DNA from: Deltaproteobacteria bacterium
GTDB taxonomy: Bacteria > Bdellovibrionota > JACOXK01
Assembly: GCA_016186995.1 (NCBI GenBank)
Contig: JACPKQ010000005.1
Span: forward strand, 2,593 to 66,592
Length of the DNA stretch: 64,000 nt
Reading direction: 5' to 3'
Shown here in pieces: positions 8,372 to 52,000 of this stretch. Each line of letters begins with the position of its first letter. Positions within the stretch are counted from its first letter, which is position 1. The notes beneath the pieces were generated by a model. It was not told where the DNA came from, ran no database searches, and saw only the letters and a list, made by a program, of their open reading frames with translations. A program made the position numbers and the translations under genes.

Positions 8372-9127
8372 TTAAAAGTAAAAAATTTTCTTCAAACTCA
8401 AGCCACAGGCTGGGGCTGTAGGGCCTCGAATCATATGAGCAGGATTTATCTGACCACTACCGACAAGATACATAGCACCCACAATGTTTCGAATCATATG
8501 TTTTAAAAATCCTGTTCCTTGAATTTTAAAAACAAGAAAATCTTCTTCTTGTCTCCACGCAGCTTCTAGAATAGTTCGAAAAGTTGTTTTGGTACGACTG
8601 CCACTTGTTTGAAATAATCTAAAGTCATGTTCTCCTATTAAATATCCGCAAGCTTCATTCATGAGTAAAATATTTAATTTTTTAGGTCTCCACCAAGACA
8701 TTGTTTTATCTTTCTTAGTTGGATTTTTTCCATTAAAAATAGAGTACTCATAAAGTTTTGACACAGAGTCTTCCCGGGCGTGGAAACTATCTTGAACCTC
8801 TTCTGCCATAACAATACGAATATCTTCTGGTAAATATGAATTTATTTTTTGAACACAACTATTCAAGGGACGGAACGCAGGGCTTCCTGGATTCCAGCTT
8901 GTGCCTACGGCTGTAGGCTGGAATGACGGAGGTGGTGTAAAATGAGCAACTTGGCCTTCTGCATGAACACCCGCATCTGTTCGAGAAGCCCCATAAATAA
9001 TCACCTTTTGATGAAATATTTTATAAAGTGCTTCTTCTATTTTTCTCTGTATTGTGGGGCGTGTTTTCTGCCTTTGCCAGCCTAAATATTTGGCTCCATT
9101 ATATTTTATAGTGAGTTTTATTTTCAT
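8372..9127 (-). CDS. truA: tRNA pseudouridine(38-40) synthase, with in-frame palindrome insert
   Basis: Y.G..Y.GWQ.Q, GASRTDAGVHAEGQV, GFLKHMIRNIVG, TAPACGLSL. Confidence 0.95.
   Translation of the reverse strand: MKIKLTIKYNGAKYLGWQRQKTRPTIQRKIEEALYKIFHQKVIIYGASRTDAGVHAEGQVAHFTPPPSFQPTAVGTSWNPGSPAFRPLNSCVQKINSYLPEDIRIVMAEEVQDSFHAREDSVSKLYEYSIFNGKNPTKKDKTMSWWRPKKLNILLMNEACGYLIGEHDFRLFQTSGSRTKTTFRTILEAAWRQEEDFLVFKIQGTGFLKHMIRNIVGAMYLVGSGQINPAHMIRGPTAPACGLSLKKIFYF
8889..8928 (-). repeat. GTCAT palindrome in frame in truA (PSFQPTAVGTSWNP)
   Basis: CGTCATTCCAGC...GCTGGAATCC on the minus strand. Confidence 0.9.
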
Positions 9128-9199
9128 ACAATCCTTGTTATTTTTCTCTTACTTATTTTAATTTTTTGCGATATACAAGAGAGACCTTTAGAAATATGT

Positions 9200-9275
9200 G
9201 GGTTCGTAGCTCAGTTGGTAGAGCAGCTGACTCTTAATCAGCGGGTCGAAGGTTCGATCCCTTCCGGACCCACCA
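9200..9275 (+). tRNA. tRNA-Lys (CTT)
   Basis: Cloverleaf GGGTTCG/CGGACCC acceptor stem, GCTGA-CT CTT AA-TCAGC anticodon arm, TTCGA T-loop, encoded CCA. Confidence 0.97.
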
Positions 9276-9305
9276 CTTATTTCTCCCCCAAATAGGCTTA
9301 TTTCC

Positions 9306-49014: not shown

Positions 49015-49015
49015 A

Positions 49016-49327
49016 TTAGCAAACCGAACTTGTTGTTCGTTCCCCCGATTTCAAAAGACGATCCTTCTTCCAAATGAGATAGATATTTCGTAAATAAATA
49101 AAAAGCCCTAAACCTTGCCCCACAATAAAAACAGGATCTTTTCTGTGAAGAGCATAAATAAATAAAAGAAGCCCTCCCGAAAAACTAAAATGCCAAAAAA
49201 CAGTAGGAATAACACTTTCACCCTTTTTTTCAGAAACAACCCATTGAACGAGAAAACGCATAAAAAAAAGGGATTGTGCTACAAAACCCAATATCAGCCA
49301 AAAATCTAAATGAAAGTGAGCAAACAT
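49016..49327 (-). CDS. lipid-A-disaccharide synthase N-terminal (LAB_N) domain protein
   Basis: GFVAQSLFFMRFLVQW, SVIP..FW, DPVFIVGQ. Confidence 0.9.
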   Translation of the reverse strand: MFAHFHLDFWLILGFVAQSLFFMRFLVQWVVSEKKGESVIPTVFWHFSFSGGLLLFIYALHRKDPVFIVGQGLGLFIYLRNIYLIWKKDRLLKSGERTTSSVC

Positions 49328-49363
49328 TGTTCAAACAGTATTCTCTCCTCTCTATTATTGTCA

Positions 49364-52000
49364 ATGTTCAGAGACGTGTTACTCTTTAAAGATATGCATC
49401 TAACTCTTTCTCAGGGTCTTAAAGTTACGGTTGAAGAATCCCATCGTTCTCCTGTTGTTTCAGCTCAAATTTGGCTTGATGTGGGTAGTTTTCACGAAGG
49501 AAAGGGCGAAGAAGGTGTAGCTCATTTTTTTGAACACATGCTTTTTAAAGGAACTCAACGGAGAAAACTAGGCGAAATAGCACAAGAAGTTGAATCTCAT
49601 GGTGGAGAAATGAATGCCTATACGAGTTTTGATCAGACGGTATATTATATCACCATTCCCTCTCGTCACTGGGCATTAGCCCTAGATATATTATCCGATG
49701 CAGTCCTTCATCCACTTTTTGATCCACAAGAAATAGAAAATGAAAAACTTGTCGTCTTTGAAGAAATGGCAAGATCCCACGACTCTCCTCATGATATGGC
49801 AAGTGAACTGTTACTCAAAAACATTTTTCAAAACCACCCTTATGGTAAACCTATCTTGGGGAAAAAAGAAACAATCCAAAATTTAAATCAGAAAAAACTC
49901 ATTCAGTTTCATAGAAAATGGTACACACCCAATCGAATGACACTTGTTGTAGCAGGCGATGTGAACTCAAAAAATATATTGGCACAAGCCAAAAAACTTT
50001 TTTCACATAAAAAAAAATCTCCAATCAAAAAAGACTGGATTCCCCGATCAAGTCGGGGGATGACATTTTATTTCCGGGATGACTATTTTAAAAAAAAACT
50101 TACCTTTTGTCTTAAACCAGCACATATCCAACTCTCTCACTCTCACTTAGCTTTTCTAACTCCACCTGTTGTACACTCAGATATCCCAAAACTTGATCTT
50201 TTATCTTCTATTTTGGGACATGGAGAAAGCAGTCGCCTCTACGTCGCCACAAAAACGAAGAAAAAATTAACAAGTTCCATTCACTGTGGAATCTATACAT
50301 TAAAAAAAGCAAGCGTATTTTATATTTCTTCTGTTCACATCCCAGAAAATCTTATTCCCCTCACAAGAGAAATTGTTACACAAATCAATAATATCAAATT
50401 AGCTCATATCACCCCACAAGAGATAGACATTGCTAAGAAAAACATCTTAAGTGAAAAAATCTATGAAAAAGAAACAACAGATGGTCTTGCACGTAAGGTA
50501 GGCTTTTATGCTACTTATTTTAATAATCCAGGAGAAGAACAGAAATATTATGAAAGTATCAAAGATACAACCACTTCAGAACTTAAAGACATAGCTCATA
50601 AATATTTAAATCTTTCTCAGTCGACTTTTGTTAATTTATATCCTGAAAAATACTCCCCAAAAATAAAAGAATTTAAAAACATGATGAGATCGCCACGGTT
50701 TCTTTTGAGAACCCTCGCGATGACAAGAGAAAAAACAACTCATAAAATAAAACAAAAAAGTATTAAAAAATATGTTTTGAATGGCTTGACCGTCCTTTTT
50801 GTTGAAGATCACTCGCTACCTATCATTTCTATGAGAGCAACTTTTTTTGGAGGTTCTCTCTATGAAACAAAGCAAAAAATAGGTCTTACACAGGTACTCA
50901 CCCGTGCCATGACAAAAGAAACTTTGGAAACTTCGCAAATAGAGCTCGCTCAAAAAGTAGAAGAAATAGCAGGAAGTTTAGAGGGTTTTAGTGGTAGAAA
51001 CAGTTCTGGACTCAGCTTAGAATTTTTAAGTGAATATGAAAACCTAGCACTAGACCTTTTCTTTGAAATCTTACTGCACCCAAAATTCTCTCCTAAAATA
51101 CTCTCTTATCTCAAAAAACAAACTCTTGAAGAAATAAAGTATGAAGAAGATAATCTTGCAAGCAAAGCTTATAATAATTTCCTTAGAAAACTATATCCCC
51201 ATCATCCTTATGGATATCCACTTAATGGTACTCCACAAACAATAACCTCACTAAAAACTAAAAATCTCTTCAAAGCTCATAAAAGCATTTTCATTCAAAA
51301 TCCTGGAATATTAACTATCGTGGGAAGCTTTTCGGAAGACTTTAGAGAAAAAATTATTGAAGCTGCTAAAAAATGGGAGAAAAGAACTAAGCCCCATAAA
51401 AAATTTCCTAAAATTCTACCTTTAAAATCAAATCAGGAGCTTTATGAGCACAAAACTAAAAAACAAGTCAATATTATACTTGGTTTTTTAGGAGCAAAAA
51501 TTTCGGATCAAGACCGTTACGCTCTACACATACTTTCTACAATCCTTTCTGGACAAAGTGGAAGACTTTTTATGAATTTAAGAGATAAAGAAAGTTTAGC
51601 TTATTCACTTCATGCAAGTAATATAGAGGGACTTCTACCAGGACATTTTTATTTTTACCTAGGTACCTCCCCAGAGAAATTAGGAAAAGCTTTAAATCTA
51701 CTTAAAAAAGAAATTGAAACCCTTAGAAAGGAAAAAATTTCAAGAACAGAAATAACAAGAGCCAAAAAATATATTATAGGAAAGCATGAAATGAGTTTGC
51801 AAAAACTGAGCACCCAAAATGCCTATTATTCTTTTGATGAACTTTACGGATTAGGATACGCAGAAACTTTAAATTACCATAAAAAAATTTCTCAGATAAC
51901 TCAAAAAGATTTAGAAAAAGTGATTCACAAATATCTAAACTTAAATTCTTCTATTTTATCTGTTGTAGGCCCTGTAAAGAATAAAACAACTGATAAATAA
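49364..52000 (+). CDS. M16 family zinc peptidase (two fused halves), two in-frame inserts; start 49364 or 49394
   Basis: GVAHFFEHMLFKG (HxxEH), NAYTSFDQT. Confidence 0.93.
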   Translation: MFRDVLLFKDMHLTLSQGLKVTVEESHRSPVVSAQIWLDVGSFHEGKGEEGVAHFFEHMLFKGTQRRKLGEIAQEVESHGGEMNAYTSFDQTVYYITIPSRHWALALDILSDAVLHPLFDPQEIENEKLVVFEEMARSHDSPHDMASELLLKNIFQNHPYGKPILGKKETIQNLNQKKLIQFHRKWYTPNRMTLVVAGDVNSKNILAQAKKLFSHKKKSPIKKDWIPRSSRGMTFYFRDDYFKKKLTFCLKPAHIQLSHSHLAFLTPPVVHSDIPKLDLLSSILGHGESSRLYVATKTKKKLTSSIHCGIYTLKKASVFYISSVHIPENLIPLTREIVTQINNIKLAHITPQEIDIAKKNILSEKIYEKETTDGLARKVGFYATYFNNPGEEQKYYESIKDTTTSELKDIAHKYLNLSQSTFVNLYPEKYSPKIKEFKNMMRSPRFLLRTLAMTREKTTHKIKQKSIKKYVLNGLTVLFVEDHSLPIISMRATFFGGSLYETKQKIGLTQVLTRAMTKETLETSQIELAQKVEEIAGSLEGFSGRNSSGLSLEFLSEYENLALDLFFEILLHPKFSPKILSYLKKQTLEEIKYEEDNLASKAYNNFLRKLYPHHPYGYPLNGTPQTITSLKTKNLFKAHKSIFIQNPGILTIVGSFSEDFREKIIEAAKKWEKRTKPHKKFPKILPLKSNQELYEHKTKKQVNIILGFLGAKISDQDRYALHILSTILSGQSGRLFMNLRDKESLAYSLHASNIEGLLPGHFYFYLGTSPEKLGKALNLLKKEIETLRKEKISRTEITRAKKYIIGKHEMSLQKLSTQNAYYSFDELYGLGYAETLNYHKKISQITQKDLEKVIHKYLNLNSSILSVVGPVKNKTTDK
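50036..50083 (-). repeat. GTCAT palindromes in frame in M16 peptidase (WIPRSSRGMTFYFRDD)
   Basis: GGATTCCCCGA-TCAAG-TCGGGGGATGAC...TCCGGGATGAC on the plus strand. Confidence 0.88.
50686..50725 (-). repeat. GTCAT palindrome in frame in the M16 inter-domain linker (RSPRFLLRTLAMT)
   Basis: GAGATCGCCACGGTTTCTTTTGAGAACCCTCGCGATGACA on the plus strand. Confidence 0.88.

Follow-up and report, generated by a model that had tools for sequence, protein, structure and literature searches.

The question raised by the 64-kb stretch of contig JACPKQ010000005.1 analysed here (the window, meaning this whole stretch) is why one family of short palindromic hairpins, marked by a GTCAT-like tag, recurs both between genes and within their reading frames, and whether it does so as a DNA repeat or as a peptide. 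An initial annotation had recognised the family and put it at about 21 palindromes. Manual curation of the window upheld the family and raised the count, to 28 full [C/T]GTC-tagged hairpin elements between positions 5977 and 53384 and, besides these, at least seven truncated half-sites. Half of the full elements (14) lie in seven genes, identified by Pfam in agreement with the names first given to them: truA (one element), an HI0933-like flavoprotein gene (two), an SPL-like radical SAM protein gene (four), purF (two), purL (two), selA (one) and an M16 peptidase gene (two). Twelve are internal copies, at ten loci, and two form C-termini (SPL-like and purF); the ten internal and two C-terminal sites of the initial annotation thus stand as loci but not as copies, the HI0933 partner at 9715-9747 and one purL copy having been missed. 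We consider it likely that the sites in the window are non-autonomous hairpins of the CGTC-tagged REP superfamily, kin of SRM/NTS, of dRS3 and of RPE-4 and RPE-6, which multiply at the DNA level and are filtered by reading frame when they lie in genes.

The window has a GC content of 36% and is about 88% coding. The closest homologues of its proteins in very large sequence collections are 45-73% identical, and those that carry names belong to metagenome-assembled genomes labelled "Bdellovibrionota bacterium" or "Deltaproteobacteria bacterium"; the host is probably a poorly sampled lineage near Bdellovibrionota. Contig scans of genomes and metagenomes with PurF gave relatives of at most 61% identity among the matches listed, and a syntenic relative, contig L165 (73% identical), was reached through an exact-protein look-up of an SPL-like homologue.

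A tagged hairpin repeat within and between genes

The bare GTCAT pentamer is mildly enriched in the window (121 sites against 95 ± 10 in shuffled sequences). When GTCAY is required to lead immediately into a hairpin, by a 5-bp closing-stem definition, 26 sites are found against 6.7 ± 2.5, with a maximum of 13, in 100 dinucleotide shuffles, and 17 such hairpins have a folding energy of -9 kcal/mol or lower where 1.05 are expected. The published SRM pattern finds three sites (0.08 expected), and because it catches only these three elements we adopted structure-based definitions of our own. As a folding-energy threshold is not comparable between loci differing in GC content (high-GC loci yield 0.5 hits per kb by chance), density comparisons with unrelated loci were dropped.

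The elements share a plan. A pyrimidine-rich stretch leads into an unpaired [C/T]GTC tag, which is followed by a GC-rich stem of 8-9 bp, whose second arm, beyond the loop, ends in AT, and by a tail that in most elements begins with C (CCAG, CTAG or CTCATC). The tag reads GTC in 26 of 28, nearly always after C or T, and GTT in two; the first stem pair is A-U in all 28 and the second is U-A in 24 and C-G in four. Loops span from 4 to about 38 nt and frequently hold a nested hairpin: measured between 9-nt arms, the distance is 2-5 nt in 14 elements and 12-36 nt, often with nesting, in the other 14. Tails are CCAG or CCAA in seven elements, CTAG, CTAT or CTAA in seven, and CTCATC or CCCATC in six, with others among elements of the ACCCTGAG type, which have no C directly after the palindrome. 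The stems found side by side in the window are of at least three types, namely ATTCCCGC/ATTCCAGC/ATCCCGGA with CCAG or CTAG tails, ATYGCGAGG...CGTGGCRAT with a CTCATC tail, and AYYCTGAG...CGAAGRRT. Elements are 23-57 nt long and form GC-rich islands within an AT-rich genome, and as RNA they are predicted to fold into stable hairpins (-7.5 to -31 kcal/mol). After trimming, the alignment shows pairing in 85% of stem cells over eight positions, and seven of the eight stem pairs show changes on both sides, with a covariation score that none of 500 shuffles reached and that lies far above those of slid alignment registers. Inverted pairs with their tags outward occur at 9715/9802, 14604/14686, 16810/16874 and 33095/33163. 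The half-sites consist of GTCAY plus the 5' arm, with a period of 18-21 nt, and are found immediately upstream of a full element; the strand is shared, the stem type often not.

Element density is 0.25 per kb in genes and 1.8 per kb in intergenic DNA, which makes up 12% of the window; this roughly sevenfold deficit argues that most genic insertions have been purged by selection and that the survivors are a filtered set. The 8-kb block from truA to purS (8891-16874), 12.5% of the window, holds 13 of the 28 elements (binomial P ~1e-5), and no full element was catalogued before 5.9 kb, in 17-26 kb, in 44-50 kb or after 54 kb.

Reading frames and inserted segments

The reading frame is kept downstream at all ten internal loci, as had been claimed for the motifs that follow the internal sites; the probability of this by chance is (1/3)^10 = 1.7e-5. 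A tabulation of the codon phase of every tag agrees exactly with the earlier proposal that the five stop-free frames are used. Three of these are sense frames, V-I (purF, purL, the selA half-site and the SPL-like C-terminus), C/R-H (HI0933, SPL-like and the purF tail) and S-F/S (truA and selA), and two are antisense, M-T (HI0933, purL and twice M16) and N/G/D-D (SPL-like and the M16 half-site); no genic element uses the antisense frame that reads TGA. Since the elements occur on both strands, in five frames, and in spacers as well as genes, they constitute a DNA-level repeat and not a conserved peptide, and the earlier notion of frame-blind insertion without peptide selection is borne out. A conserved peptide motif was likewise ruled out as a description of the repeats by their use of five frames and their presence in spacers. 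An example of a peptide encoded by the inserts is CHSSPKPLAQAGIQK.

What the elements add to their hosts was read from homologue alignments, which reveal extra segments in the products of purF, selA, truA and the SPL-like, M16 and HI0933 genes and no net gain in that of purL, where a simple insertion is ruled out. TruA has about 17 residues more than E. coli TruA, and in the HI0933-like protein the tags-outward pair 9715-9747/9768-9802 amounts to about 34 extra residues relative to three solved homologues. The SPL-like enzyme, with 427 aa against 351-366 in homologues 54-59% identical to it, bears four inserted blocks totalling about 75 residues, up to 17% of its length: inserts of 36 aa (two half-sites plus a full element), 17 aa (from 11386..11422) and 9 aa (from 11247..11269), and a C-terminal extension of 13 aa. 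Compared with its syntenic L165 counterpart (73% identical), PurF contains an insert of exactly 20 aa, or 60 nt, starting GTC ATC CCC GCC, and alignment with B. subtilis PurF gives an identical 20-residue gap. SelA has 26 aa inserted at one point relative to A. aeolicus SelA, both flanks aligning to residue 367, and the M16 protein has inserts of 11 aa (50039..50083) and 12 aa (50689..50724) relative to its nearest homologues. Inserts excepted, the truA, HI0933, SPL-like, selA and M16 products align end to end with their homologues.

These constraints bear on whether the inserts might be removed before the mature protein is formed, by RNA-level excision or by protein splicing. Hairpins could in principle serve as processing sites, but removal would leave length and frame free, yet all ten loci are stop-free and multiples of three. 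Rfam and ARAGORN found only a tRNA-Lys in the window, with no intron or ribozyme family, and 23-57 nt is far below the size of an intein. The frame constraint and the lack of an Rfam family together make such excision very unlikely.

AlphaFold models were inspected for two proteins. In the SPL-like model (predicted local distance difference test, pLDDT, 82.6) the only segments below 50 are residues 38-59, the first insert, and 410-427, the C-terminal extension; the second insert is coil with pLDDT 60-69 at residues 161-180, and the third, of 9 aa, prolongs a helix end with pLDDT of about 90. In the M16 model (pLDDT 84.1) internal scores drop below 50 in two segments only, 206-230 and 433-454, and these are the two inserts. 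Six of seven inserted segments modelled are therefore low-confidence coil and one lies at a helix end. By prediction, the inserts in these two proteins agree with tolerance in loops and linkers, the folds appearing undisrupted, and to this extent the earlier suggestion that housekeeping genes accommodate the repeat in loops is supported; for purL and purF it is unsafe, for reasons given below.

Retention of intragenic copies for a function of their own, as mRNA hairpins tuning translation or stability, as sites at which Ssn nucleases modulate recombination, or as surface peptides, would accord with the compensatory changes that maintain the stems, with the stability of the predicted RNA hairpins, with the occupation of the PurL linker in two lineages (see below), and with the behaviour of Neisseria, where NTS copies next to genes influence transformation by way of SsnA (PMC11893778). 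The coexistence of several repeat subfamilies explains the stem covariation equally well, however, and a retained function is difficult to reconcile with copies that occur in both orientations, five frames and unrelated proteins, are sevenfold depleted in genes relative to intergenic DNA, and sit in the least ordered parts of the models. We regard such a function as improbable.

Host genes, relatives and other features of the window

Part of the purine operon appears to be damaged. The PurL frame closes with ...VGLIHG*, which leaves it about 167 residues shorter than its 722-aa counterpart in L165, and purF begins at that point (14177-14190). PurF is without the C-terminal CTAC Fe-S ligand motif, which L165 retains; its final 55 or so codons (12658-12830, reverse strand) consist of an NTS-type element and further small hairpins that replace the motif. 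In addition, purC, encoding SAICAR synthetase, is split between open reading frames (ORFs) at 17236-17586 and 16890-17243 (reverse strand), which match Pfam profile positions 1-113 and 117-232; the frameshift near 17240 is away from any long homopolymer and reflects either a pseudogene or an assembly error. Assembly error may also lie behind the purL truncation.

It is this damage that makes a general statement about housekeeping genes unsafe for purL and purF, and it invites the proposal that the hosts are decaying pseudogenes of a reduced or predatory genome, in which repeats pile up unselected and the proteins no longer work. The frameshifted purC, the shortened purL, the purF without CTAC and the concentration of 13 of 28 elements in the 8-kb block that holds the pur genes are all in keeping with it. 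Neutral decay would nevertheless not yield ten of ten internal loci in frame and free of stops; the truA, HI0933, SPL-like, selA and M16 genes align end to end bar their inserts; and PurL and PurF remain 72-73% identical to their L165 counterparts with no internal frameshift. That the purL and purF inserts are in frame also suggests that these genes were under selection when the inserts settled. We therefore think wholesale decay unlikely, although somewhat less so than a retained function, and prefer frame-filtered DNA-level multiplication, with relaxed selection on purine synthesis as a reasonable partial explanation of the density between truA and purS.

That the window derives from a metagenome-type contig raises the separate prospect that repeats were mis-joined into genes during assembly, to which the purL truncation and purC frameshift, as possible assembly errors, lend some colour. 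Exact-protein look-ups of the window's SPL-like, PurL, M16 and HI0933 proteins returned no second record (four of five look-ups negative); the sole success, with the selA product, led to an independently assembled Logan contig, L081, which differs from the window at 4 of 4385 nt (99.9% identity) and has both the insert in selA and its neighbour, the element at the selA-nfi junction. Sequencing run SRR12113424 contains a near-identical strain. The independent reproduction in L081 makes an artefact unlikely, ten frame-preserving mis-joins are not expected, and a separately assembled relative bears an element within purL; we give mis-assembly hardly any credence.

Relatives carry tagged hairpins at lower density: one intergenic copy in 7.6 kb of contig L166, none in 10.6 kb of L162 and one in 9.3 kb of L165. 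The L165 element lies in purL within three codons of the position of the window's purL pair and is of a different stem type.

Other repeats accompany the tagged elements (Table 1). A MITE-like repeat of about 165 nt has terminal inverted repeats of about 17 nt, AAAATGGTTRCTATCT ... AGATARCAACCATTTT. A 73-nt repeat occurs at 5899-5971 and 8301-8373 (97% identity between copies), one copy just upstream of the element at 5977-5999 and the other abutting the truA stop codon. A 165-aa ORF at 53139-53636 (reverse strand) has no Pfam match, and in the purS ORF the PurS Pfam match begins only at residue 37, after 36 codons (16752-16859, reverse strand); both the 165-aa ORF and these 36 codons are repeat-built and probably non-coding. 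At E <= 1e-5, Pfam assigns no family to five large ORFs, of 1332, 892, 582, 483 and 506 aa.

Table 1. Positions of host genes, tagged elements and other features in the window; the last row refers to contig L165.
Feature	Position	Strand	Remarks
truA	8372-9127	-	Pfam
HI0933-like flavoprotein gene	9306-10586	+	Pfam
SPL-like radical SAM protein gene	10626-11909	-	Pfam
purF	12658-14187	-	Pfam
purL	14177-15844	-	Pfam
selA	38394-39842	-	Pfam
M16 peptidase gene, two-lobed	49394-52000	+	Pfam
Full element, intergenic	5977..5999	+	short NTS-like loop; GTC ATTCCCGC-TTTC-GCGGGAAT CTA
Full element, truA	8891..8927	-	aa 67-79; sense, S-F frame; PSFQPTAVGTSWN
Full element, HI0933-like gene	9715..9747	+	aa 137-148; sense, R-H frame
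Full element, HI0933-like gene	9768..9802	-	aa 155-166; antisense, M-T frame
Full element, SPL-like C-terminus	10630..10667	-	VIPALRLEPLAGI*; V-I frame; CTAA tail supplies stop codon
Full element, SPL-like gene	11247..11269	+	aa 214-221, DSRLRGND; antisense, N-D frame; fits published SRM pattern
Full element, SPL-like gene	11386..11422	-	aa 163-175, CHSSPKPLAQAGI; sense, C-H frame
Half-sites (11712, 11730) and full element (11751-11774), SPL-like N-terminal region	11712..11774	+	aa 46-66; antisense, D/G-D frame
Full NTS-type element, repeat-built purF C-terminal tail	12769..12791	-	TGTCATTCCCGCGAAGGCGGGAATCCAG; C-H frame
Full element, purF	13567..13605	-	sense, V-I frame; within 60-nt insert
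Full element, purL linker	14604..14639	+	antisense, M-T frame
Full element, purL linker	14661..14686	-	VIASGSEAI; sense, V-I frame; tags-outward pair with 14604-14639
Two half-sites (16768, 16789) and full element (16810-16835)	16768..16835	+	purC-purS spacer
Full element, inverted partner	16851..16874	-	purC-purS spacer
Full element, intergenic	26635..26658	+	adjoins exbB
Full element	32221..32243	-	3 nt past stop codon of ORF 31370-32218
Full element	33052..33085	-	nested-hairpin loop; convergent intergenic gap
Full element	33095..33118	+	GTC ATTCTGAGCAACGCGAAGAAT; convergent intergenic gap shared with 33052..33085
Full element (33140-33163) and upstream half-site (33164-33183)	33140..33183	-	gap shared with 33052..33085
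Full element	38353..38387	-	selA-nfi junction; also in L081
Full element (38647-38703) and half-site (38704-38723), selA	38647..38723	-	aa 374-399; element with long nested loop, S-S frame; half-site V-I frame; also in L081
Tagged hairpin	42798..42848	+	within copy 2 of the 165-nt MITE-like repeat
Full element, intergenic	43117..43150	-	upstream of ORF 43195
Full element (50039-50064) and half-site (50065-50083), M16 gene	50039..50083	-	element WIPRSSRGMT, M-T frame; half-site D-D frame
Full element, M16 inter-domain linker	50689..50724	-	MRSPRFLLRTLAMT; antisense, M-T frame
Full element, intergenic	53086..53109	+	adjoins lptF/G start
GTT-tag variant hairpin	53200..53233	+	within copy 3 of MITE-like repeat
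GTT-tag variant, ACCCTGAG type	53361..53384	-	non-coding DNA; overlain by the 165-aa ORF
Half-site loci, five	11712/11730, 16768/16789, 33164-33183, 38704-38723, 50065-50083		
MITE-like repeat, three intergenic copies	41567-41733, 42757-42923, 53141-53310		one tagged hairpin inside each
MITE-like repeat fragment	32236-32287	-	
Large ORFs without Pfam family	33193-37191, 28567-31245, 26757-28505, 2910-4361, 43195-44715		repeat-free
Tagged hairpin in purL (1703-3871) of L165	2835-2860	-	GTC ATCCTGAGCCGCAGGCGAAGGAT; read DPSPAAQDD

Relation to known repeat families

Two published systems frame the interpretation of the repeat. The CGTC-tagged REP superfamily was defined by Di Nocera, De Gregorio and Rocco in 2013 (PMC3733652) by a CGTC or TGTC (also CCTC) tag, an 8-9-bp stem starting A-T, T-A, a loop of 4-5 nt and a CCA tail; CGTC-1 equals dRS3 of Neisseria and RPE-6 of R. 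conorii, and CGTC-4 equals RPE-4. Intragenic copies occur in that superfamily, with truA among their hosts, and over half of them are dimers, encoding 20-30 aa; inserted peptides of R. conorii, including WILRSSRGMT, cover all five frames (Additional file 3), and a dedicated transposase was reported to be lacking (PMC3733652). The second system was described by Chenal et al. in 2025 (PMC11893778), who found that NTS, CGTCATTCCCGCGMAVGCGGGAATCYRG, and the SRMs are bound as single-stranded DNA by GIY-YIG Ssn nucleases (cd10448), which cut a few nucleotides upstream of the motif, as described for four homologues. The three bases before the palindrome weigh most for cutting and the C after it most for binding; SRMs flank 71% of ssnA homologues, symbionts such as Rickettsia and Wolbachia are over-represented among genomes with more than 300 SRM copies, and the intragenic share of NTS is only 2% in N. 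meningitidis (PMC11893778).

Window elements resemble the second system in their order of tag, palindrome and C, their high copy number and their gene-adjacent clusters; at 12765-12792 the sequence agrees with CGTCATTCCCGCGMAVGCGGGAATCYRG at all bases but the first, where it has T instead of C, and the NTS core GTCATTCCCGCGAAGGCGGGAATC is matched exactly by two window copies. The data show that the repeat multiplies at the DNA level, with copies in spacers and genes and on either strand. Copies survive in genes only if their length is divisible by three and they use one of the five stop-free frames, the antisense third frame reading TGA; in the two modelled proteins the survivors sit in coil, linkers or the C-terminus, and they would be translated as 9-36 extra residues. 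Spread may depend on a small Ssn nuclease of the GIY-YIG class (cd10448) whose gene lies outside the window and which would bind the hairpin on single-stranded DNA and cut a few nucleotides upstream, and the exceptional load from truA to purS may reflect relaxed selection there. The partner enzyme is likely to be such an Ssn nuclease rather than an HUH transposase.

Several observations weigh against this interpretation. About half of the window copies have loops of 12-36 nt in place of the 4-5 nt of CGTC REPs, and the SRM pattern fits only three of 28 elements, the remainder failing solely on loop length. Elements of the ACCCTGAG type are without the post-palindrome C that is key to SsnA binding. 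In agreement with the initial annotation, which had noted no mobiliser gene, neither a GIY-YIG motif search nor Pfam matching of every ORF of at least 100 aa, with ten intergenic ORFs besides, disclosed a GIY-YIG or HUH gene in the window, the Pfam matches including no nuclease or transposase, and the link to Ssn consequently relies on the literature and on identity of motif sequence. With purC, purL and purF looking damaged, some hosts may no longer be under selection, and in purL the element pair has replaced native linker sequence, a conserved LLxSxNxxS motif included. Finally, the limited identity of the closest relatives (45-73%) precludes an exact placement of insert boundaries and target sites.

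How new copies arrive may have left traces. Half-sites are not peculiar to the window genome, a possibility ruled out by their presence at 6 of 128 strict elements in unrelated loci. We offer, as a speculation of low probability, that the half-sites and the PurL linker occupied by different element types in two related lineages are footprints of new copies laid at or into existing ones, beside an upstream cut point of the Ssn type. If so, a heavily loaded genome of this kind would be a natural system for reconstructing the movement of CGTC/SRM repeats and the remodelling of protein loops by hairpins. The Ssn partner family was identified only in 2025, and the stem types, long loops, dimers and truncated copies of the window should help to match Ssn variants to motifs. 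The window also illustrates a pitfall of annotation, in that repeat-built ORFs and N- or C-terminal extensions (the first 36 purS codons, the ORF at 53139-53636 and the purF tail) can be mistaken for coding sequence.

Other palindromic families resemble the repeat less closely. GTAG REPs and REPINs, associated with RAYT (HUH Y1), are likewise short tagged hairpins with inverted dimers, high copy number and occasional intragenic copies, but the tag in the window is [C/T]GTC and not GTAG, and no Y1_Tnp Pfam match occurs there. RPE-1, studied by Ogata et al. (2000, 2002), is reportedly palindromic selfish DNA that lies in frame in functional genes and is translated, appearing on the protein surface. 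It shares with the window elements the in-frame, translated palindromic insertion, whereas it is about 100-150 nt long and unrelated in sequence, the window elements being tagged hairpins of 23-57 nt and of RPE-4/-6 type.

The resemblance to Rickettsia palindromic elements and CGTC-type REPs that was noticed at the outset is correct and can be made precise. Window elements share with CGTC REPs the tag, the A-T/T-A stem start and a CCA-type tail, several stem types per genome, inverted dimers, and in-frame intragenic copies or dimers encoding about 8-35 aa, truA included; with R. conorii they share near-identical peptides in five frames (WILRSSRGMT there; WIPRSSRGMT and VIPA... here). The phenomenon, the use of five frames and the likely partner enzyme have thus already been published, and this is not a new kind of system. 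It differs in extent and in host. Half of the window copies are intragenic as against 2% for NTS in N. meningitidis, one 427-aa protein bears four inserted blocks, and the density singled out earlier does stand out, with 14 intragenic copies in 64 kb against about 28 rows listed for the whole R. conorii genome, a local intragenic load some ten times higher. Di Nocera et al. contains no text match to Bdellovibrio, and no report of CGTC/SRM repeats in Bdellovibrionota was found in the literature searched; with the window, from a low-GC and probably Bdellovibrionota-related lineage, the range of in-frame protein-coding palindromes, so far Rickettsia and a few other bacteria, comes to include a deep, uncultured branch.

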